Of a stretch of 64,000 nt of DNA, positions 269 through 34,363 are shown in pieces. How positions within the stretch are numbered: the stretch's first letter is position 1; each line of letters begins with the position of its first letter. The notes under the pieces were generated by a model, which worked only from the letters and a program-made list of their open reading frames with translations, had not been told where the DNA came from and did no database searches. The stretch is from the IMG/VR virus record IMGVR_UViG_3300020045_015293, positions 24,641 through 88,640 of that record. One strand, written 5' to 3'. The stretch is from a virus (Duplodnaviria; Caudoviricetes). The position numbers were made by a program, and so were the translations under genes.

Positions 269-904
269 ATGGGATTTATAGCTTTAGAATTTGATATAGT
301 AAATCATTATGTTGATTATTATAAAAAAATATATAATAAACAATATGAAGACATACAAATGTTAGAATTGGGAGATCAAATTTTTTATGTTGATCATCCA
401 TCAGTTGGAGTATTAAATAGTAACAATTTTAAATATAAAGTTGCTAAAGATTATTTTCAAAATAAAAAAATTAATCATACTTCAATAGATTTAAATGGAA
501 ATAATGGATCTATATCCTTAGATTTATCTAAATCTTTACCTGAAGAATTTTATAATAAATTTGATATAATTACGAATGTGGGTACTGTTGAACATGTGGA
601 AGAAGATCAATATGAAACTTTTAAAAACATACATAAATGTTTAAAAGTAAATGGAATGTTTATGTCTTTTATGCCTAAAGTAGGAAGTTTTGATATTAAT
701 CATTGTTCTTGGTTTTATAATTTAGATTTTTATCGAGATTTAGCAAATGAACAAAAATATACTATATTTTACTTAGGAGAAATATTATATCCTTCAATTA
801 ATAGAGATATGGGAACATTAGTAACATGTGTTTTACAAAAAACAGAAAATAATGATTTTATAATAAATAAAGATATATTTCATAGAAATTTATTTCGAAA
901 ATAA
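269..904 (+). CDS. class I SAM-dependent methyltransferase
   Basis: MLELGDQ, SIDLNG, FDIITNVGTVEHV...CLKVNG motifs. Confidence 0.75.
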   Translation: MGFIALEFDIVNHYVDYYKKIYNKQYEDIQMLELGDQIFYVDHPSVGVLNSNNFKYKVAKDYFQNKKINHTSIDLNGNNGSISLDLSKSLPEEFYNKFDIITNVGTVEHVEEDQYETFKNIHKCLKVNGMFMSFMPKVGSFDINHCSWFYNLDFYRDLANEQKYTIFYLGEILYPSINRDMGTLVTCVLQKTENNDFIINKDIFHRNLFRK

Positions 905-1389
905 TGAGAAAAACATTTGCAAATTTAATATTAGAAGAAACTAAAATTAATCCAAATATTGTTGTATTAACGGGGGATTTAGGTTATAAAGTATGGGATG
1001 AATATAAAGAAAATTTTCCTAATAATTTTTATAATGTAGGTTCTGCTGAACAATTAATGATAGGCACAGCTATAGGATTATCATATACAAATAAAATTCC
1101 AATATGTTATTCTATTACTCCATTTTTATTATATAGACCATTAGAATTAATAAAAAATTATATAAATCATGAAAATGTTCCTATAAAATTGGTAGGTAGT
1201 GGTCGTAATAAAGAATATAAAGATGATGGTATATCTCATTGGGCTGAAGAAGATAAAGAAATTATGAAAGTTTTTATTAATATTATAACATGGATTCCTA
1301 ATTCAATAGAGGAGTTAGAAAAATTTTATAAAGAATTTCTTTATTCAGAGTCTCCTATTTATCTTAATTTAAGTAAAAAAATATATTAA
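904..1389 (+). CDS. transketolase C-terminal (pyrimidine-binding) subunit of a split transketolase-like enzyme
   Basis: LTGDLG, NVGSAEQLMIGTAIGLS, GISH motifs. Confidence 0.85.
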   Translation: MRKTFANLILEETKINPNIVVLTGDLGYKVWDEYKENFPNNFYNVGSAEQLMIGTAIGLSYTNKIPICYSITPFLLYRPLELIKNYINHENVPIKLVGSGRNKEYKDDGISHWAEEDKEIMKVFINIITWIPNSIEELEKFYKEFLYSESPIYLNLSKKIY

Positions 1390-16592: not shown

Positions 16593-17246
16593 ATGTCAAA
16601 AATTATAACACTTCCAAACATAAAAATTAATAATAATTTAGGAACAATTGGTATTATAGAAGTAAGTATTAAGGGTAAAATTCATCAATGTATTCAATTT
16701 TCTTATAGATCTGATTGTATTAAAATTTCATCTGTAAAACAAATATTACAGGGAAAAATTAAAAAAAGGGTTACAACATATGATCGTTATGGTAATAAAT
16801 ATGATACTTATAATATAACAAATACTTCAAAAGGAATACATATAGGATGTCAATATATTCATTCATCAGTAGTTAATAAACTTAAAACTTTACTTTTAGG
16901 TACAAATATAGAAGCAGTTAAAAAACAATTTTCATTAACATCATTTAATAGTAATGACTTAAGAAGAATTTCAATAATAAATGAAAAAGTATATCGTAAA
17001 GGAGTTTTTTCATGTATATATTTTCCACTAAGAGAGGACTATGTTTTATTAAATGATGTTAAATTAGTAATTCAAAATAATAAATTGTCTTTTATTAATA
17101 CATATTATAAAAGAGGTAATATTTTAAGATTAAATGTAGCAAGAAAAATATATAGAAATTATAAAGGAAACATTATATCCGTTGGATGTCAAGGTATACC
17201 TTCTTCAACATTAATTCAATTAAAACAATATTTTAAAATAAAATAA
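16593..17246 (+). CDS. GC[QGE]-repeat family protein (2 copies), paralog of 15910-16575
   Basis: IGCQYIH and VGCQGIP; shared YFP.R...V.L..V and N..DLR segments. Confidence 0.6.
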   Translation: MSKIITLPNIKINNNLGTIGIIEVSIKGKIHQCIQFSYRSDCIKISSVKQILQGKIKKRVTTYDRYGNKYDTYNITNTSKGIHIGCQYIHSSVVNKLKTLLLGTNIEAVKKQFSLTSFNSNDLRRISIINEKVYRKGVFSCIYFPLREDYVLLNDVKLVIQNNKLSFINTYYKRGNILRLNVARKIYRNYKGNIISVGCQGIPSSTLIQLKQYFKIK

Positions 17247-17277
17247 CGGTTTTTAAAAAGTATATATATTTATAGAT

Positions 17278-17382
17278 ATGAAAAATAAAATGTCATATAG
17301 ATCCTTTAGTTGGTCAATTTGTCCCGGTGCACAACGCGTGCATGGAGAAGATACTAAGGGCTATAAAGATGTTATTGTATAA
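17278..17382 (+). CDS. putative leader peptide MKNKMSYRSFSWSICPGAQRVHGEDTKGYKDVIV
   Basis: Short ORF between the ATATTTATA box (17266) and the terminator preceding the first tRNA. Confidence 0.45.
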   Translation: MKNKMSYRSFSWSICPGAQRVHGEDTKGYKDVIV

Positions 17383-17407
17383 AACTATAAATTAACAATA
17401 TTTTAAG

Positions 17408-17433
17408 AAGCCCATTGAAAAATGGGCTTTTTT
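17408..17433 (+). terminator. intrinsic terminator
   Basis: aagcccatt-gaaa-aatgggctt followed by a T run. Confidence 0.8.
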
Positions 17434-17436
17434 ATT

Positions 17437-17511
17437 CGGTGACTAAGCTAATCTGGTGAAAGCGTATCCCTGAAGAGGATAAGAGTTCGGGTCGGAACCG
17501 AGAGTCACTGC
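17437..17511 (+). tRNA. trnF: tRNA-Phe(GAA), atypical T-loop
   Basis: Acceptor cggtgac/gtcactg; anticodon arm tatcc-ctgaaga-ggata. Confidence 0.75.
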
Positions 17512-17651
17512 AAAAATAAAAGTTAAAAGTTAATAGCGGTTCGCATTTAAATGGCAAGTAGTAGAGGTCCAAACTCATAAATCTATCCAACTCCTGAGGG
17601 CTGGAAGGTACCCAAGAGTAATATCAGGCAAGTTAAATGTACTTTTATTTT
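17512..17651 (+). ncRNA. unassigned structured RNA
   Basis: aaaataaaagt/acttttatttt, catttaa/ttaaatg, cctga/tcagg pairings. Confidence 0.4.
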
Positions 17652-17657
17652 AAATAC

Positions 17658-17728
17658 GCGGGTATGGTGCAATGGTAGCATAAGTGATTCCAAACCACTT
17701 GATAAGAGTTCGAACCTTTTTATCCGTG
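17658..17728 (+). tRNA. trnW: tRNA-Trp(CCA)
   Basis: Loop ttccaaa; T-loop ttcgaac. Confidence 0.85.
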
Positions 17729-17733
17729 CAAAT

Positions 17734-17806
17734 GACTCTATGGTGAAATTGAATATCATTCTTCTTTCCTAAAGAAGCGTTTCAGATTTGAATTCTGATA
17801 GAGTTA
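17734..17806 (+). tRNA. trnR: tRNA-Arg(CCT)
   Basis: cttct-ttcctaa-agaag anticodon arm. Confidence 0.8.
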
Positions 17807-17815
17807 CTAAAATAT

Positions 17816-17888
17816 GGTTCCATGGTGAAATTGAATATCATTCTCGCCTTCTAAGCAAGAGTTTCGGGTTTAAATCCTGATGGAACTA
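17816..17888 (+). tRNA. trnR: tRNA-Arg(TCT)
   Basis: Loop cttctaa; acceptor ggttcca/tggaact. Confidence 0.8.
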
Positions 17889-17895
17889 CTAAAAT

Positions 17896-17968
17896 GGACT
17901 TATGGTGAAACAGAACATCACTCCACGCTACGGACGTGGCATTTCGGGTTTGAATCCTGATAAGTCTA
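17896..17968 (+). tRNA. trnR: tRNA-Arg(ACG)
   Basis: ccacg-ctacgga-cgtgg. Confidence 0.85.
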
Positions 17969-17970
17969 CT

Positions 17971-18054
17971 AAAAGAGGAGCGGAAACGTACCATGAAATC
18001 CCGAAAGGGAGAATTGGGTCAGATCGATGGCTTTAAAAATTCTAACCTCTTTTT
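17971..18054 (+). ncRNA. unassigned structured RNA
   Basis: aaaagagg/cctctttt closing stem; tccc-gaaa-ggga hairpin. Confidence 0.4.
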
Positions 18055-18060
18055 CAATAT

Positions 18061-18133
18061 GGCGGTATGTCCGAGCGATTATAGGTGCTAATCTGCAAAA
18101 TTAGTTAGGTTGGTTTAACTCCAACTACCGCTT
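18061..18133 (+). tRNA. trnC: tRNA-Cys(GCA)
   Basis: ctaat-ctgcaaa-attag; U73 discriminator. Confidence 0.85.
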
Positions 18134-18179
18134 CAAAAAATAAATTTTTTTATTCCAAAAAAAGAATTTAATTTTATAT

Positions 18180-18190
18180 GTTCTTTGAAA
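18180..18190 (+). promoter_or_regulatory. boxA-like antitermination element GTTCTTTGAAA
   Basis: Between the CCAAA promoter (18155) and tRNA-Pro; 8 further copies in the RNA island. Confidence 0.55.
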
Positions 18191-18199
18191 TTTAAATAT

Positions 18200-18272
18200 C
18201 TAGGTGTGGCCGAGATGGGAAGGCACTACTTTTGGGAAGTAGACCAAGCAGGATCGTCACCTGTCACCTAGA
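18200..18272 (+). tRNA. trnP: tRNA-Pro(TGG)
   Basis: ctact-tttggga-agtag; C1-G72 acceptor. Confidence 0.8.
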
Positions 18273-18345
18273 CATAACTACCTAGTCCGACTTAACTTTG
18301 AATTTAATTATGTTAAATTTAGGGGATTGTGAGGGGTAGTTAAAT

Positions 18346-18420
18346 GGGGATATAGTATAAATTGGAATAGTATGGTGGTTTTGCATACCATCGATCCGGA
18401 ATCGTGGTCCGGTATCTCCA
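18346..18420 (+). tRNA. trnA: tRNA-Ala(TGC)
   Basis: gtggt-tttgcat-accat; G3:U70 identity pair. Confidence 0.85.
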
Positions 18421-18482
18421 CAAAAGTTCTTTGAAAATATTCGTTTTTTATTTTTTCCACATATTTATACCAAATATAAATT

Positions 18483-19397
18483 ATGGGAAGATTAAAATAT
18501 ACTAAAGAATTACTTGAAATAAAAGTTAAAGAAAGTTTTTCATTAAGAGAATTAATGGAAAAATTAGGGATGAATTATTATTCAAGTCAAAAACATATAA
18601 GAAATTTACTTGAAGCTTATAATTTAAATACTTCACATTTTATTGGAATTAAGATACAAAAACGTAATAATGAAGAAATATTTAAAACTGATTCTAAAGT
18701 AAATAGATCAACTTTAAGAAAAAGAATTATTGATAATAATTTAATTCCATATATTTGTCAAAATTGTAATTGTAATGATGAATGGATGGGTAAAAAAATG
18801 CCTTTTATATTAGATCATATTAATGGAATAGGAGAGGATAATAGAATTGAAAATTTAAGATGGCTTTGTTCAAATTGTGATTCAATACAGGATACTTATA
18901 AATCAAAAAATAAAAATTCGAGTAAATCAAGAAAAAGAATAATTAATAAAATAAACAGAGAATCTGAAATATTAAATATTAAATTAAATAAACATAAAAT
19001 TACAGAATTAAAAAATAATGAATTAAAACAACAAATACTAAATTCAAGAGTAGAATTTAATGAAATGGGGTGGGGAGTAGAATTAAGTAAAATATTAAAT
19101 ATGACTCCTCAAAATTGTTTGAGAATAACTAAAAAATTATTACCTGAATTTTATAAAGAAAAATGTTGGAAAAAATTTGAAGATAAAAATAAATTTAAAA
19201 GACAAAAAGATTTAGAAATTGAAAAATCAAAATATAATTTAGAAAAAATAAAGAAAAATATTAACCTTATAAAAGCATCAAAAATTAATTTTAAAGAAAG
19301 AGGTTGTTTTGTAAAAGCTAATCAAATATTAGGATTTAAACAAACTACAGATGCTATTAAATGGTTAAAAAGAAATCTCCCCGAATTAATAAATTAA
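18483..19397 (+). CDS. HNH homing endonuclease inside the tRNA cluster
   Basis: CQNC...LDHING...DNRIENLRWLCSNCD; two C-terminal DF...GW/GC...LP repeats. Confidence 0.85.
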   Translation: MGRLKYTKELLEIKVKESFSLRELMEKLGMNYYSSQKHIRNLLEAYNLNTSHFIGIKIQKRNNEEIFKTDSKVNRSTLRKRIIDNNLIPYICQNCNCNDEWMGKKMPFILDHINGIGEDNRIENLRWLCSNCDSIQDTYKSKNKNSSKSRKRIINKINRESEILNIKLNKHKITELKNNELKQQILNSRVEFNEMGWGVELSKILNMTPQNCLRITKKLLPEFYKEKCWKKFEDKNKFKRQKDLEIEKSKYNLEKIKKNINLIKASKINFKERGCFVKANQILGFKQTTDAIKWLKRNLPELIN

Positions 19398-19469
19398 AAA
19401 CAAAAACATGAAAAATTCCAACAGCCTAACGCTTTAAGGTTACTGACAAAACAGTAGCCCAGCGTAAAA

Positions 19470-19640
19470 ATGGCTAAAAAAGAAGGCGGTGGTAAAGGTA
19501 AAAAAGGTAATAAAAAATACGGCCGCGAAATTAAAAAAAGATCAAATAGAGGAAGTACAATTTCTTTATTTGTTCGCAACAGAATTACTGCTGAAGAATA
19601 TTTTAGAAAAGCAGGATTATCTCTAAAAAGAGATAAATAA
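19470..19640 (+). CDS. small basic protein (56 aa, MAKKEGGGKGKKGNKKYGR...), not in the ORF track
   Basis: Read directly; K/G/R-rich; lies immediately before the Y RNA-like element. Confidence 0.6.
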   Translation: MAKKEGGGKGKKGNKKYGREIKKRSNRGSTISLFVRNRITAEEYFRKAGLSLKRDK

Positions 19641-19724
19641 ACAGGCTCCGGAAGTCGTGAGTTCGAGTCTCACCTTGGCCCGAAAGGGCTGAGTAGCTCA
19701 GTTGGTAGAGCGCCGGACTAGGTT
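19639..19724 (+). ncRNA. yrlA: YrlA-type bacterial Y RNA / circularly permuted tRNA mimic
   Basis: Order: tccgg, T-arm gtgag-ttcgagt-ctcac, acceptor-like hairpin cttggcc-cgaaag-ggctgag, D-arm gctc-agttggta-gagc, ccgga; Ro60 gene at 32798. Confidence 0.75.
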
Positions 19725-19788
19725 ATCAATTAACGAGGACGTTAGTGCACGCCTACAATGCAGTAATGCAAGAGGATAACCGCAAATT

Positions 19789-19861
19789 GGCCCTATAGCT
19801 CAGTTGAGAAGAGCTCTGGTTTTACATACCAGGTGCACCCGTTCGAATCGGGTTAGGGCTA
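19789..19861 (+). tRNA. trnV: tRNA-Val(TAC)
   Basis: ctggt-tttacat-accag; canonical T-arm. Confidence 0.9.
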
Positions 19862-19889
19862 CTTGAATTTTCGAAAAGATCTTTGAAAT

Positions 19890-20042
19890 AAATAACGTTC
19901 TTAATCAGGAATAGATTTTACAAAAAATGGGTGGGGTAATAAATTATCAAAAATAATAAATAGATCTCCTGCTTGGACTTTAAAATGGGTGAAAAGTAAT
20001 ATTCCAGAAATTGAAAAAATTTGTTTTAAACATTCTTTTTAA
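19890..20042 (+). pseudogene. remnant of an HNH endonuclease C-terminal repeat
   Basis: SGIDFTKNGWGNKLSKIINRSPAWTLKWVKSNIPE resembles NSRVEFNEMGWGVELSKILNMTP..LP of 18483-19397; no start, frame broken near 19902. Confidence 0.6.
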
Positions 20043-20044
20043 AA

Positions 20045-20118
20045 CGAGGTAACGCATAAATGATGGTGCACCTGCCTTCCAAGTAGGAATAGAGCCGGTT
20101 TGATCCCGGTTACCTTGA
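20045..20118 (+). tRNA. trnG: tRNA-Gly(TCC)
   Basis: cctgc-cttccaa-gtagg. Confidence 0.8.
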
Positions 20119-20224
20119 CAACATACACATTCCCCTTCTCATAAGAACAGGGTGCTCAGAGTGTGTTTTTTATATGCCGAGTTGAAAGGGAATCCACAGT
20201 GGGGACACTGCCCCTCGGCTCCAT

Positions 20225-20297
20225 GCGAATATAGCACAATGGCTCAGTGTACCGGCTTGCCAAGTCGGTGATGACAGTTCGAATCTGTTTATTCGCT
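20225..20297 (+). tRNA. trnG: tRNA-Gly(GCC)
   Basis: ccggc-ttgccaa-gtcgg; U73. Confidence 0.9.
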
Positions 20298-20358
20298 CAT
20301 AAATAAAAAATTATGATTATTCTTTCTGGTTGATGTCTTGACTCTGTAAAAAGAATCA

Positions 20359-20583
20359 ATGATGAATCAAAACAAACAAATTCGACTTTGGAGAGTCGAG
20401 TGGGTCCATAAAAATGGATACCGTGCCCCTCATTATTGGGTTGAGGCAAAAGTAGTAATAAGGAAAGGTAATGTGAATGAAAAGGAAACAAGAAAAAATG
20501 CAGTAAAAGCTGCAAAACAACACTCAAGATTAGGTGATTTTCCTAAAACTTGGTATTGTAAAATTACAGATGTTAGTGAATAA
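20359..20583 (+). CDS. hypothetical protein
   Basis: ORF between tRNAs. Confidence 0.55.
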   Translation: MMNQNKQIRLWRVEWVHKNGYRAPHYWVEAKVVIRKGNVNEKETRKNAVKAAKQHSRLGDFPKTWYCKITDVSE

Positions 20584-20669
20584 CTAATATCTTAAAAATA
20601 GATTCCACGCTTCCCATCTCGAAGGATAATGAGAAGAATAATACGTCTTTCAAGAATCTATTTTTATAT

Positions 20670-20741
20670 TGCCACTTGGTGTAATGCGTAGCACAAGAGT
20701 TTTTGGAGCTCTTTGTTTCAGTTCGAATCTGAAAGTGGTGA
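20670..20741 (+). tRNA. trnQ: tRNA-Gln(TTG)
   Basis: agagt-ttttgga-gctct; U1 start. Confidence 0.8.
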
Positions 20742-20749
20742 CTTAAAAT

Positions 20750-20833
20750 GGAGGATAGCATGCAAGGTGCATAACTGGCTTTGAACCCCAGGCCAACGCT
20801 GATCGCGTTGAGGTTTCGATACTTTATCCTCCG
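20750..20833 (+). tRNA. trnS: tRNA-Ser(TGA)
   Basis: Loop tttgaac; long variable arm caacgc/gcgttg; G73. Confidence 0.85.
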
Positions 20834-20836
20834 CAA

Positions 20837-21028
20837 AAATAAAAAATGAGCTATCGCTATATTAATATAGAGGAAACTCAGGACTCCGTTGTTTAATTTG
20901 GAAGACGAAAGTCGTTATACCAAAGAGGGAGAAACTTAAAACAGTCTATATGGATGAACAACATGGACAAGGTAAAGGATTAGACAAATGATAGCATAAA
21001 ACAGAAACCTGGTTACTATTTTTTATTT
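20837..21028 (+). ncRNA. rnpB: RNase P RNA, minimal (~190 nt)
   Basis: CR-I-like gaggaaactcagg, CR-V-like acagaaacctggtt forming P4 with bulged U; P1 aaataaaaaat/attttttattt; P2 ctatc/gatag; ggtaaa and tagacaaatga segments. Confidence 0.85.
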
Positions 21029-21030
21029 TA

Positions 21031-21103
21031 TCCCGCTATGGTGAAATGATATCACTTCAGTTTGTGGATCTGAAATTATAAGTTTGAATCTTATTAGTGG
21101 GAC
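21031..21103 (+). tRNA. trnH: tRNA-His(GTG)
   Basis: Loop ttgtgga; C73. Confidence 0.8.
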
Positions 21104-21111
21104 ATTAAAAA

Positions 21112-21202
21112 GGAAGTTAAACCCATGATGGCATTGGGGAATACCTGCTAAGTATTTTATCGGCTATAAACCGATACGTGAATTCGAGTTTCACAACTTC
21201 CG
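21112..21202 (+). tRNA. trnS: tRNA-Ser(GCT)
   Basis: aatac-ctgctaa-gtatt; long variable arm tatcgg/ccgata; G73. Confidence 0.85.
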
Positions 21203-21207
21203 CATAT

Positions 21208-21286
21208 TGGATAGTACCGAGCCATCCTGATAAGATGGATAATCGTAGCGGTGTTGTAAACGTGGGTTCAAATCCCTCCTATCCAA
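21208..21286 (+). tRNA. atypical tRNA-Ile(GAT) lacking a D-arm, with long variable region
   Basis: Acceptor tggatag/ctatcca; ccatc-ctgataa-gatgg; only 7 nt between acceptor and anticodon stems. Confidence 0.6.
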
Positions 21287-21288
21287 CT

Positions 21289-21428
21289 AAACTTCTGAGT
21301 CATAAACAAAAAAACCACTCGGGTTCAAGGGAACTATACACCATGCAGAGTAAGTATTTGCAAATGCTTGACTCATAAGAAAACCTTAAAGTATAGTAGT
21401 TGTGAGGGTGACACAAACTTAGAAGTTT
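21289..21428 (+). ncRNA. unassigned structured RNA
   Basis: aaacttctgag/cttagaagttt, actatac/gtatagt, gagtca/tgactc pairings. Confidence 0.45.
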
Positions 21429-21448
21429 AACTTATTTAATTTTTAGTT

Positions 21449-22003
21449 ATGAAATATAAAAAACTTAAAGTTCCTGAAACATCATCTTGGGATAGAAAAC
21501 CAACATTTTTTAGACGCTATTTCCCAATTTGGTTAAAAGAATTTGTTGAAGGAATAAAAAATATTATTAGATGGATTCCAACTATATATAAAGATAAAGA
21601 TTGGGATCAATATTTCATAATGAAATTACTTCAAAAGAAAATTGAACATCAAAGAGAATATTTAATTTATCATAATCGTCACATAGGAATAGAACAAGAT
21701 AATAGAAATATGACTTGGGTTCTAAATTTAATTGAGTACCAAATCAATGATTATTATGAATTAGAAAAATATGATTATGTTGAATTTGGAAAAAAATTAC
21801 TTGGACCTTATAAATCTGAGAAATTAGATAATTATTTAGTAAAATATCCAGGAACTATTCGAAGAGTAAAACAAAAATATCCTAATATAAACTTTGATAA
21901 TAAAGATAGACTTTCATTGTATGTAGGTATATATAATCAACAAAAATGTAATCATTTAATTTGGAAAATAATGGAAGAAAAAAGTGGGCAATGGTGGGAT
22001 TAA
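21449..22003 (+). CDS. hypothetical phage protein
   Basis: IIRWIPTIYKDKDWD...WWD; 184 aa ORF. Confidence 0.6.
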   Translation: MKYKKLKVPETSSWDRKPTFFRRYFPIWLKEFVEGIKNIIRWIPTIYKDKDWDQYFIMKLLQKKIEHQREYLIYHNRHIGIEQDNRNMTWVLNLIEYQINDYYELEKYDYVEFGKKLLGPYKSEKLDNYLVKYPGTIRRVKQKYPNINFDNKDRLSLYVGIYNQQKCNHLIWKIMEEKSGQWWD

Positions 22004-22056
22004 TACTTTTTTCCAAAGTTTTTTTCTTACCTTTATGCTAGTAAAAAGGTTATGAA

Positions 22057-22404
22057 ATGAAAGTAATTCCTAAAATAGAACCTAAAAAAGTTTATACTTT
22101 ACGAACTTTTTATGATGCAGGTATAATTCATATACATACTTTAGTTTATTTAAGATTTCAACATATATTTAATTCTAATATATATTATATACCACATCGT
22201 ACTAGTGAGTATTTAAAATCATTTAAATTTTTAAATTTAAATTCAGCAAAAAATGCACCAATACCAAGTAACCCTGAAATTAAATCATTTGAAAAAGATA
22301 TTGAAATTAAAATTTGTGGGGAAGTATTTGAAGCTGAAAGAATCGAAGCAGATACTAAATTAATATCAGATATTATTGGGGAAAATGGTATTATTTTATT
22401 ATAA
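22057..22404 (+). CDS. hypothetical protein
   Basis: ORF after CCAAA promoter at 22013. Confidence 0.55.
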   Translation: MKVIPKIEPKKVYTLRTFYDAGIIHIHTLVYLRFQHIFNSNIYYIPHRTSEYLKSFKFLNLNSAKNAPIPSNPEIKSFEKDIEIKICGEVFEAERIEADTKLISDIIGENGIILL

Positions 22405-22413
22405 TTTTTTAAA

Positions 22414-22710
22414 ATGAATGTAATTCCTGAAACATTTTTGAGAAAGTTAACTATTAGGAACAATGCAATAGTTATCCCTAAGAAAATAGATGAATTAAAA
22501 GACAGATCTAATGAATATAAACAATTATTTGAAATGCGTTTACTTTCATTTGTTCATGATGGAACAATAACAAGAGCGGTGTGTGAATTGTTAAATGATC
22601 TTCCTTATGATCATAATTTTAATATTGCACAAGAAAATAGAGAAAAAGGTAGTATTATTTCATTACCAATAAGTATTTTAAAGTTTGTTAAAGAACCTGA
22701 GGTTTCCTAA
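22414..22710 (+). CDS. hypothetical protein
   Basis: ORF. Confidence 0.5.
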   Translation: MNVIPETFLRKLTIRNNAIVIPKKIDELKDRSNEYKQLFEMRLLSFVHDGTITRAVCELLNDLPYDHNFNIAQENREKGSIISLPISILKFVKEPEVS

Positions 22711-22744
22711 ATTTCGATATATTTATATACAACAAAAAATTATT

Positions 22745-22834
22745 ATGTTTTTACAAAGTTTGATAAATACAAATATTCTTACGTTAGATTATATGGATAA
22801 TCTAAATGAGGATAAATCTGTTACATCAGGCTAG
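22745..22834 (+). CDS. putative leader peptide MFLQSLINTNILTLDYMDNLNEDKSVTSG ending in TAG
   Basis: Short ORF after ATATTTATA (22719); last codons are complementary to the 5' arm of the downstream terminator. Confidence 0.5.
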   Translation: MFLQSLINTNILTLDYMDNLNEDKSVTSG

Positions 22835-27801: not shown

Positions 27802-27872
27802 GCGTCATTGGTATATTGACTGTGCCTTCGTCTCTAAAGCGAAAGAAAGGAGTTTAATTCTCTTATGACGCT
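27802..27872 (+). tRNA. amber suppressor tRNA (anticodon CTA)
   Basis: Acceptor gcgtcat/atgacgc+T; D gtat/gtgc; ttcgt-ctCTAaa-gcgaa; T-arm aggag-tttaatt-ctctt. Confidence 0.85.
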
Positions 27873-28013
27873 CTAAAATAAATTAAAAGTGTTTACCTTT
27901 ATTGTAATATGTATAGCAATAATGGAATTAATAAGGATGACACTAAAATCAATTTTTAAAAAATGAAGCGAAAACAGTAAGCTACCCTCAAGCTAAAATG
28001 AGGGATTAAGTAT

Positions 28014-32797: not shown

Positions 32798-34363
32798 ATG
32801 AAATACAACAAAAAATCAATGACTGCTGTATCAACAGTACAAACACATCAAGGTGGAATGGGTTTCCAACTTGAACCAAAATTAGAATTAATTGCATTAC
32901 TTGCTTCAGGTATTGAAAACAAGTATTATGAAAAAGAATCTGAACGTGAACAACGTTTAAATAAATTAGTATCAGAAATAGCTGTGAAAGATAAAAATTT
33001 TGTAGCTAAAGCATTAATATATGCTCGTACTAAAATGGGTCAACGTTCTGTTACTCATATAGGAGCAGTTAATTTAGCTAAATTTTTAAGTGGTGATGGA
33101 TTAGGTTCTCGTTTTTTCTCAAAACGTGATAGAAAAGAAAATAAAGGAGGAATAGTATTCCGTTTAGATGATATGCTTGAAATAGCAGCATGTTATCAAG
33201 CTAAAAATCCAAATACAAAAACAAGAAAAAATGGATCACCTTCAATGACATTGCCAAATTCTATTAAAAAAGGATTTAAATCAGCTTTAGAAGCAGCTGA
33301 TGAATATGAATTAGCTAAATATCAAGGTAAAACAAGAGACATATCATTAGTTGATATTTGTAATTTGGTTCATCCTAAGCCATCTAAAAAAATGGTACCA
33401 GTATTTAAAAAATTGATGAATGGTGAATTAAAACAATTTAATACTGTTGAAGATAAAAACTCTGCTGCTGGGCAAGAAGTGGCTGCAGCGATTGCAAGTG
33501 GAGAAATGAGTGCAACTGAAGCTAAAGTTGCTTTACAAGAAGCAAAAGAAGAAAATTATGCTGAACTAATAAGAAATAAAAAAATTGGTTATTTAGCATT
33601 ATTACGTAATTTACGTAATATTTTAAAAAATACCACTGATAAAACACTTATTAATGATGCTTGTGATTTATTAACAGATGCTAAATTTGTAAGAAATTCA
33701 TTAGTGTTTCCTCACCAAATTGATATAGCATTAGAAATAATGTTATCTGAATTTGGAGTTTCAAAAATGGGTAAATTTGCTACTGCTTTGAATACAGCAT
33801 ATGAATTAGCAATTCCAAATTTAACTGAATTATTTACTTCAGGTAAAACTGCAGTTGTATTTGATTCTTCAGGTTCAATGAGTGCATCTATTATGTTAAG
33901 TAATAAAAGTAGAGGTAGCGAAGCTGCTTTAGATAAAGCTGTTTTAATAGCTGCTACTTTAGCTAAAGGTATAGGTGCTGATGTTTATACATTTGCAAAT
34001 AATTGTCATTCTATTTCTTATAATCCAGGTGATACTGTTAATACTTTGAAGAAACATTTTAAATCTAGTGCTCATGCTGGAGGAGGAACATATTTTGGTT
34101 CAATATTCCAAGTTTTAGGAACTAAATATGATCGTGTATTTGTTATTTCAGATGAACAAGGTGCTGATTCATTAGAAAGAAGTTCATATTCAAATACTCA
34201 TATTTACTCTATAAATTTATGTGGTTATGGAACTACAATGTTTAAACCAGGTAATAAAGTTTATAGATTATTTGGATATGGAGCTGATATATATGAATTA
34301 ATTAAAAAAGTAGAAGTAGATCCTAAAGCAATATTAGCTGAAATTGAAGCAATTCAAATATAA
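32798..34363 (+). CDS. rsr: Ro60/TROVE-domain RNA-binding protein with C-terminal vWA domain
   Basis: THQGGMGF, R...G.RS, YEL.KY, LVHPKP, ALLRNLRN, FDSSGSM MIDAS, GGGT, VISDEQ. Confidence 0.92.
   Translation: MKYNKKSMTAVSTVQTHQGGMGFQLEPKLELIALLASGIENKYYEKESEREQRLNKLVSEIAVKDKNFVAKALIYARTKMGQRSVTHIGAVNLAKFLSGDGLGSRFFSKRDRKENKGGIVFRLDDMLEIAACYQAKNPNTKTRKNGSPSMTLPNSIKKGFKSALEAADEYELAKYQGKTRDISLVDICNLVHPKPSKKMVPVFKKLMNGELKQFNTVEDKNSAAGQEVAAAIASGEMSATEAKVALQEAKEENYAELIRNKKIGYLALLRNLRNILKNTTDKTLINDACDLLTDAKFVRNSLVFPHQIDIALEIMLSEFGVSKMGKFATALNTAYELAIPNLTELFTSGKTAVVFDSSGSMSASIMLSNKSRGSEAALDKAVLIAATLAKGIGADVYTFANNCHSISYNPGDTVNTLKKHFKSSAHAGGGTYFGSIFQVLGTKYDRVFVISDEQGADSLERSSYSNTHIYSINLCGYGTTMFKPGNKVYRLFGYGADIYELIKKVEVDPKAILAEIEAIQI

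Follow-up and report, generated by a model that had tools for sequence, protein, structure and literature searches.

A 190-nt stretch in the tRNA region of a phage genome fragment is likely to be a genuine phage gene for a working RNase P RNA that is reduced to the catalytic domain, is of bacterial type-A ancestry and processes phage tRNA transcripts, probably with the RnpA protein of the host. Homology, fold, covariation, conservation, genomic context and the presence of rnpA in two relatives were observed, and from these we infer expression, ends, partner and catalysis. The gene is located in a 64,000-nt stretch of DNA (the window) inside an IMG/VR viral contig of 88.6 kb, about 49% complete according to CheckV, with a GC content of 26% for the contig and 31% for the mini-RNA gene. 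A total of 21 tRNAs were detected by ARAGORN on the + strand between 17.6 and 30.6 kb, with HNH endonuclease genes in between. The preliminary description had placed the RNA between tRNA-Ser and tRNA-His; the histidine neighbour was recovered by both ARAGORN and the Rfam tRNA model, whereas the serine one was called by neither, yet it folds as a cloverleaf whose acceptor stem has 8 bp, whose D-loop is tiny and whose anticodon loop has 9 nt including UGA, with a long variable arm and UUCGAU as the T-loop, and it may be the sole Ser(UGA) decoder of the phage or a decoy (Table 1). A promoter and terminator scan of positions 16800-22800 gave counts not above those of shuffled sequence, so a transcription unit of its own is unsupported.

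The tRNA region also contains a CUA-anticodon suppressor tRNA, labelled 'Pyl' by ARAGORN, at 27802-27873 (+), with another in locus L006 and a UUA-anticodon tRNA in L003. The suppressor prompted the idea of a recoded stop codon, which was rejected, as the genetic code of the contig is standard and reading TAG or TGA as sense did not give longer ORFs. Beside the tRNA region, at 32798-34363 (+), a gene for a TROVE/Ro60-like RNA-binding protein was observed (Pfam E 6e-13, PHROG 850).

Table 1. Positions in the window of the mini-RNA gene, its neighbours and its structural elements; pairing and covariation values refer to the aligned family.
Feature	Position	Strand	Pairing and evidence
Aberrant class-II tRNA-like cloverleaf, possible Ser-UGA, 5 nt 5' of P1	20750-20832	+	MFE fold
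Miniature RNase P RNA gene, 190 nt	20838-21027	+	RF00373 end-to-end 47.2 bits; R1 173 bits
P1 5' strand AAUAAAAAAU	20838-20847	+	pairs with 21018-21027, 10 bp; 6/6 pairs covary in the family
P2 5' strand GCUAUC	20850-20855	+	pairs with 20990-20995; 90% of cells paired in the family, 6/7 pairs covary
P3 hairpin CUAUA-UUAA-UAUAG	20857-20870	+	per-sequence fold; 3 modelled pairs 100% paired in the family
CR-I GAGGAAA and P4 5' strand	20870-20882	+	GAGGAA invariant in 25; P4 96% paired, 7/8 covary
P5 5' strand CUCC	20884-20887	+	99% paired, 4/4 pairs covary
P6 pseudoknot 5' strand GUUGUU	20888-20893	+	pairs with 20957-20962 (P17 loop); 5/6 covary
P7 stub in place of the S-domain, 28 nt	20897-20924	+	outer stem 96% paired, 4/5 covary
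P5 3' strand GGAG	20928-20931	+	pairs with 20884-20887
J5/15 AAA	20932-20934	+	AA invariant or near-invariant
P15-P16-P17 arm with L15 internal loop	20935-20977	+	P15 100%, P16 95%, P17 98% paired, all covary
P6 pseudoknot 3' strand AACAAC, in the P17 loop	20957-20962	+	pairs with 20888-20893
GGU of L15	20971-20973	+	in 25/25 aligned members; the tRNA 3'-CCA binding site in type A RNase P
CR-IV / J15-2 GAUUAGACAAAUG (motif UUAGACAAAUG at 20980-20990)	20978-20990	+	UAGA.AAAUG invariant; aligns to Rfam UUAGucGAAU
P2 3' strand GAUAGC	20990-20995	+	pairs with 20850-20855
CR-V AACAGAA and P4 3' strand CCUGGUU	21000-21014	+	ACAGAA (21001-21006) invariant
P1 3' strand AUUUUUUAUU	21018-21027	+	pairs with 20838-20847
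tRNA-His(GUG), 4 nt 3' of P1	21032-21103	+	ARAGORN; Rfam tRNA 55.3 bits

A covariance-model hit, on which the preliminary description had made its reading depend, was obtained with the archaeal model RF00373 (RNaseP_arch) at an E-value of about 1e-12. Under E-value reporting, model positions 1-288 align exactly to the 190 nt of the gene with the S-domain positions deleted, and the score corresponds to E 2e-12 when 451 nt are searched and to E 1e-13 for the entire 88.6-kb record. The alignment agrees with the consensus at GAGGAAA-UC, GGAG-AA, UUAG-C-AAU and ACAGAA...GGUUAC. Every Rfam RNase P model stayed below its gathering threshold (for RF00373, 47.2 bits against 84), so standard annotation would miss the gene, and a search at gathering thresholds returned tRNAs only and no RNase P. 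No match to the whole record was obtained with RF00010, RF00011 or RF02357 in a two-stage screen, with none for RF02357 at E ≤ 10, while relatives of the mini-RNA score best on the bacterial class A model RF00010 (82.7 and 70.8 bits). Judged by the RF00373 alignment, the resemblance to RNase P RNA is far beyond chance.

All elements named in the preliminary description were found where it had placed them, within a total of 190 nt, though two labels had to be changed. The pairing of GUUGUU with AACAAC, which had been called P7, covaries in the family, but it represents the P6 pseudoknot, because it lies just 3' of P5 and has its partner in the P17 loop; likewise, the arm described as P8/9-like is present but corresponds to the outer stem of P7 plus a short inner hairpin. 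This P7 stub consists of the outer stem UUUGG/CCAAA, a conserved asymmetric internal loop and the inner hairpin GAC-GAAA-GUC. P4 is formed by AAC(U)CAGG (20875-20882) with CCUGGUU (21008-21014), leaving U20878 bulged. The J5/15 adenines would be the counterpart of the E. coli A248 region, a function assigned from published RNase P work. P18 is absent, so that CR-IV comes straight after P15, and the specificity domain (P8-P14, CR-II/III), which reads the tRNA elbow, is absent as well, with just 40 nt between the strands of P5; the archaeal type T RNA likewise has no S-domain, yet is accepted as an RNase P RNA.

The proposed structure was assessed against two alignments of homologues. The first (A2) comprised 11 sequences aligned with MAFFT, onto which a type-A catalytic-domain structure was drawn manually, P4 and P6 being treated as pseudoknots; 89.4% of its cells were paired, against 32-42% when the partners were slid by 1-3 columns, and compensatory (double) changes occurred in 42 of the 51 pairs, values reached by 0 of 500 shuffles. 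The second (A3) comprised 25 sequences and leans toward the nested helices because it was fitted to them; it gave 91.9% paired cells against 32-45% after sliding, compensatory changes in 46 of the 51 pairs, and a covariation score of 0.707 against 0.202. P4 and P6 were outside the covariance model and so provide an independent check, P4 being paired in 96% of cells and P6 in 85%, with five of the six P6 pairs covarying; covariation of P4 in homologues, which the preliminary description had named as decisive, was thus found in seven of its eight pairs. RNAalifold recovered P4, P5, P7, P15, P16 and P17 unaided from a raw MAFFT alignment, and every member has P1, P2 and P3, formed by differing sequences.

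Invariant or near-invariant residues in the family are GAGGAA, the AA of J5/15, UAGA.AAAUG, ACAGAA and the P6/L17 motif GUGAGCA, and all 25 members have GGU in the 3' strand of L15. The conserved nucleotides are the published active-site, N-1/leader-contact and 3'-CCA-contact positions (PMC4919922, PMC11143913). The sole conserved extra element is the stub loop, G(G/A)AG opposite C(G/A)NU(U/A)NNAC, observed in 24 of the 25 members (L109 deviates), whose U...A spacing appears similar to that of a T-loop motif; the hairpin distal to it ranges in length between 2 and 90 nt, and the copy in the window is the shortest among the 25 aligned members. The proposal of a catalytic-domain-only RNase P RNA with the S-domain deleted is thus borne out by the covariance-model match, by covariation of each C-domain helix, the P4 and P6 pseudoknots included, across 25 homologues and by the invariant core and CCA-binding nucleotides, with cleavage as a prediction.

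Homologues were mined with strict DNA patterns together with R1, a covariance model of our own built from 11 members. The first pattern, which required exact CR-I, CR-IV and CR-V with a short spacer, gave 8 + 18 + 9 viral loci, from which 17 true members were sorted from chance matches by P4 complementarity and by R1, and a second pattern added 11 further members; in all, >60 homologues with the same deletion boundaries were obtained from phage genomes, metagenomes and a cultured bacterium. L005, L007, L009 and several of the 18-locus set were treated as chance, as were the nine loci of the third set, matching a core pattern of 55-85 nt, which have no P4 complementarity and reached only a marginal covariance-model score in L028 (13-16 bits, E 0.04-0.24). 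The carrier contigs range from fragments up to complete genomes of 357 and 498 kb. Searching GenBank phages by blastn with the window RNA itself returned tRNA matches only, while family members used as queries detected homologues in the published huge-phage genomes LR756502.1 (642 kb) and LR756511.1 (595 kb), with R1 scores of 145 and 127 bits, respectively. A metagenome scan gave at least 35 R1-positive loci among the 80 matches listed, scoring 79-207 bits. In the window and in L002, L004, L008, L013 and L074, the gene shares its strand with the tRNAs and lies 1-15 nt away from them; in two huge phages, no tRNA occurs within 3 kb of it. The 416-kb phage contig L002 also contains, at 426-1037 (-) and a few kb from its mini RNase P RNA, an Rfam-matched tmRNA (80 bits, 652-1037) that overlaps a group I intron (91 bits, 426-667) by 16 nt.

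Only six R1-positive loci were found when the same pattern was run over 185,579 prokaryote species genomes. Two are Flavobacteriales RNAs of 351 and 372 nt, presumably ordinary rnpB, two are small DPANN-type archaeal RNase P RNAs, and one is on a 6.8-kb MAG contig with adjoining tRNAs. The DPANN-type MAG RNAs, L072:496-682 (-) and L038:5477-5718 (+), have lengths of 187 and 242 nt and pass the gathering threshold of RF00373 with 111 and 95 bits, respectively. The sixth locus belongs to the cultured Achromobacter anxifer LMG 26857, which carries a 224-nt copy (L074:6074-6298 (+), corresponding to contig 5:14076-14299) in an array of at least 32 tRNAs and also has a normal 405-nt rnpB in its genome, which marks the mini form as an accessory module that travels together with tRNAs. 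By this survey of prokaryote genomes, the short form is thus a property of phages and tRNA-array modules and not of the ordinary chromosomal rnpB.

The majority of members are type-A-like. L008:2839-3039 (+) and L018:677-887 (-) are distinguished by a P15 hairpin loop of type-B character, AAAUUAUGGUA, and by a longer S-domain remnant of about 75-100 nt that is near-identical between the two, and their best Rfam match is class B; this suggests that an RNA of Firmicutes type was reduced independently in a second event. P7-P9 and P18 are retained in L020, and the stub of L024:751-1001 (-) is enlarged by an insert that contains a perfect hairpin resembling a tRNA T-arm, GUGGGUUCAAGUCCCAC, where ARAGORN called no tRNA. 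These A-like and B-like forms, together with the L020 and L024 variants, suggest that the S-domain was lost more than once.

A search for an rnpA-like gene elsewhere in the genome had been advised in the preliminary description; neither PF00825 nor a phage RnpA protein query found one in the phage's own record, which is about 49% complete. Among 26 carrier records, RnpA above the Pfam cut-off and with the RNR motif was detected in two, LR756502.1 and the 171-kb contig of L027, and was not found in the other 24, including the two complete genomes (498 and 357 kb), so the partner protein is assumed to be that of the host. On this distribution, the majority of carriers must use host RnpA or none, and a link to bacterial RnpA appears to exist. 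A back-translated RnpA pattern matched one more locus, an 8%-complete fragment without the RNA. One phage RnpA, of 97 aa, is encoded at L091:1501-1794. The small ORF at 19470-19640, earlier put forward as a cofactor, was rejected, since its very basic 56-aa product has no Pfam family and no homologue in the 91 loci and has only the tetrapeptide RNRI in common with phage RnpA (E 0.8).

The tRNAs of this phage (17658-30564, +) are unusual in that a TTCRA T-loop is present in only 11 of the 21 and a D-loop GG in 10 of the 21, with elbow changes of the A19:U56 and A54:U58 types in about half of them. The preliminary description had regarded the mini-RNA as perhaps suited to such non-canonical elbows. 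This does not hold generally, as the tRNAs of three relatives with a mini-RNA have mostly canonical T-loops (14/18, 11/14 and 18/19), and S-domain loss and odd elbows are therefore not coupled, although in the present phage alone the former may have made the latter possible. A bolder scheme, which we regard as rather doubtful, is an orthogonal tRNA maturation in which an elbow-blind mini-RNA, self-released from the array, would process phage tRNAs with rewired D/T-loop elbows and so free these to drift from recognition by host enzymes and tRNA-targeting defences, with the T-loop-like stub (U..A, 3' internal loop) as a minimal substitute docking element. None of the 21 phage tRNAs has an encoded CCA, so contact with the GGU requires prior CCA addition. 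For this reason it is of interest that a 204-aa frame upstream of the window (G000:C1:8259-8432) weakly matches the PolyA_pol/CCA-adding nucleotidyltransferase head domain, with a sub-threshold score of 15.9 bits.

Since the core is intact and the gene is placed in tRNA arrays, removal of 5' leaders is the most likely function. The mini-RNA would be co-transcribed with the tRNA array on the + strand and released by the maturation of its neighbours, that is, by 3' processing of the upstream tRNA-like RNA and by the RNase P cut that forms the 5' end of tRNA-His, 4 nt further along. Once folded, it would bind RnpA, the host's in this phage and a phage-encoded one in a few relatives, and the complex would strip the 5' leaders off phage tRNA precursors, which would raise the capacity for tRNA processing during infection. 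Bacterial C-domains without the S-domain do cleave pre-tRNA, both with and without RnpA, at lower affinity (PMC4919922, PMC11143913). Isolated C-domains are nevertheless poor enzymes in vitro, and deletion of residues 94-204 from the E. coli RNA abolished cleavage of pre-tRNA-Tyr (PMC11143913).

That deletion leaves room for a different kind of substrate, since the shortened E. coli RNA still cut pre-4.5S RNA with the protein (PMC11143913). An active mini-RNA might accordingly have as its main substrates not ordinary pre-tRNAs but other RNAs with an acceptor-stem-like helix, candidates being the phage's own aberrant transcripts (tRNA-like and Y-RNA-like), mRNAs of phage or host, and RNAs resembling 4.5S RNA or tmRNA. 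The abundance of odd tRNA-like RNAs in the window, one of them directly upstream of the gene, the non-canonical elbows in half of the tRNAs, the Ro60/TROVE protein encoded nearby and the position of the gene away from tRNAs in two huge phages are all consistent with such retargeting. We nonetheless consider it unlikely, because in most carriers the gene lies within arrays of mostly canonical tRNAs, the CCA-binding GGU is kept universally, and other C-domain constructs do cleave pre-tRNAs.

The same universal GGU, together with the covarying P6/P15-P17 arm that places the substrate 3' end, bears on the proposal that the RNA is a decoy or regulator, for a sponge needs neither of them. Such a molecule would mimic the protein-binding face of host RNase P RNA and sequester RnpA or form a crippled holoenzyme, throttling host tRNA maturation; CR-I, CR-IV, CR-V and P3/P4 do overlap the known RnpA-binding surface, and most carriers have no RnpA of their own. 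However, two carriers encode rnpA, so that there the protein is supplied and not removed, and for phages with 20-35 tRNA genes the demand for RNase P activity is raised and not lowered, which makes this role very improbable. Decay of a captured host rnpB, or a functionless chance resemblance, could appeal to the AT-rich sequence (31% GC) and to Rfam scores that are all below gathering, but its probability is negligible, with an E-value of about 1e-13 in the phage's own record and >60 homologues sharing the deletion boundaries. In our assessment it is already refuted by covariation and conservation, given the compensatory changes in 46 of 51 pairs, and loci that match the DNA pattern by chance obtain no significant covariance-model score (best E 0.04). 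Cleavage of phage tRNA precursors by a type-A-derived mini-RNA is the reading retained here.

RNase P RNA is one of two universal ribozymes and has been regarded as a gene of cells or organelles, 300-400 nt long, with one natural form reduced to the catalytic domain, in a single archaeal family. If the conserved virus-borne RNase P RNA proposed here is true, it would be the first viral one and, at 190 nt, the smallest of bacterial type, and it would represent a natural experiment on what the specificity domain is dispensable for. It further suggests that capacity for tRNA processing is brought along by phages that have large sets of tRNAs, in a few cases with RnpA too. Annotation at Rfam thresholds misses the family as a whole. 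A compact, naturally optimised RNase P would serve the processing of tRNA arrays in vitro, and the copy in the cultured A. anxifer LMG 26857 is a ready experimental system. The present analysis adds rnpA in 2 of 26 carriers, the A-like and B-like variants, the conserved stub motif and a test of the elbow hypothesis.

Organellar RNase P RNAs of AT-rich genomes (e.g. fungal mitochondrial RPM1) are likewise pared down to an extreme degree around P1, P4 and CR-I/V, but usually lose much of the C-domain periphery too and depend on large proteins; the phage RNA, in contrast, retains the full bacterial C-domain. Compared with the bacterial type A RNA (E. coli M1 RNA/rnpB, RF00010), it shares P1-P5 with the bulged-U P4, P6 between J5/7 and the P17 loop, P15-P17 with the GGU internal loop, and CR-I/IV/V, and the bacterial RnpA of that system is encoded by two carrier phages. 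However, it has 190 nt against 340-420 nt, is without P18, P8-P14 and CR-II/III, scores below gathering, and is carried by phages and tRNA-array mobile modules, whereas type A is a single essential chromosomal gene.

Type T (type P) RNA occurs in Pyrobaculum and other Thermoproteaceae (Lai et al. 2010, as cited in PMC7191817 and PMC4919922), and minimal RNase P RNAs occur only in Thermoproteaceae according to the P-finder survey. The literature covered, which includes two recent comprehensive reviews and that survey, with subscription journals mostly outside it, contained no phage-encoded RNase P RNA. A similar reduction thus appears to be known only in these archaea, and none was found reported for phages or bacteria. 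Archaeal type T (RF02357) resembles the mini-RNA as a natural catalytic-domain-only RNA of about 200 nt that has lost nearly the whole S-domain. It differs in being archaeal, in working with archaeal proteins and in being the only RNase P RNA of its cell, whereas the mini-RNA is bacteriophage-borne, does not match RF02357 and belongs to a set of phage RNAs with bacterial type-A or type-B features; the reduction in phages is judged to be independent of that in type T. The domain content is the same as that of engineered bacterial RNAs consisting of the C-domain only (PMC4919922, PMC11143913), but those are laboratory deletions with reduced affinity and rate, whereas the mini-RNA is natural and conserved and has an extra conserved stub loop.
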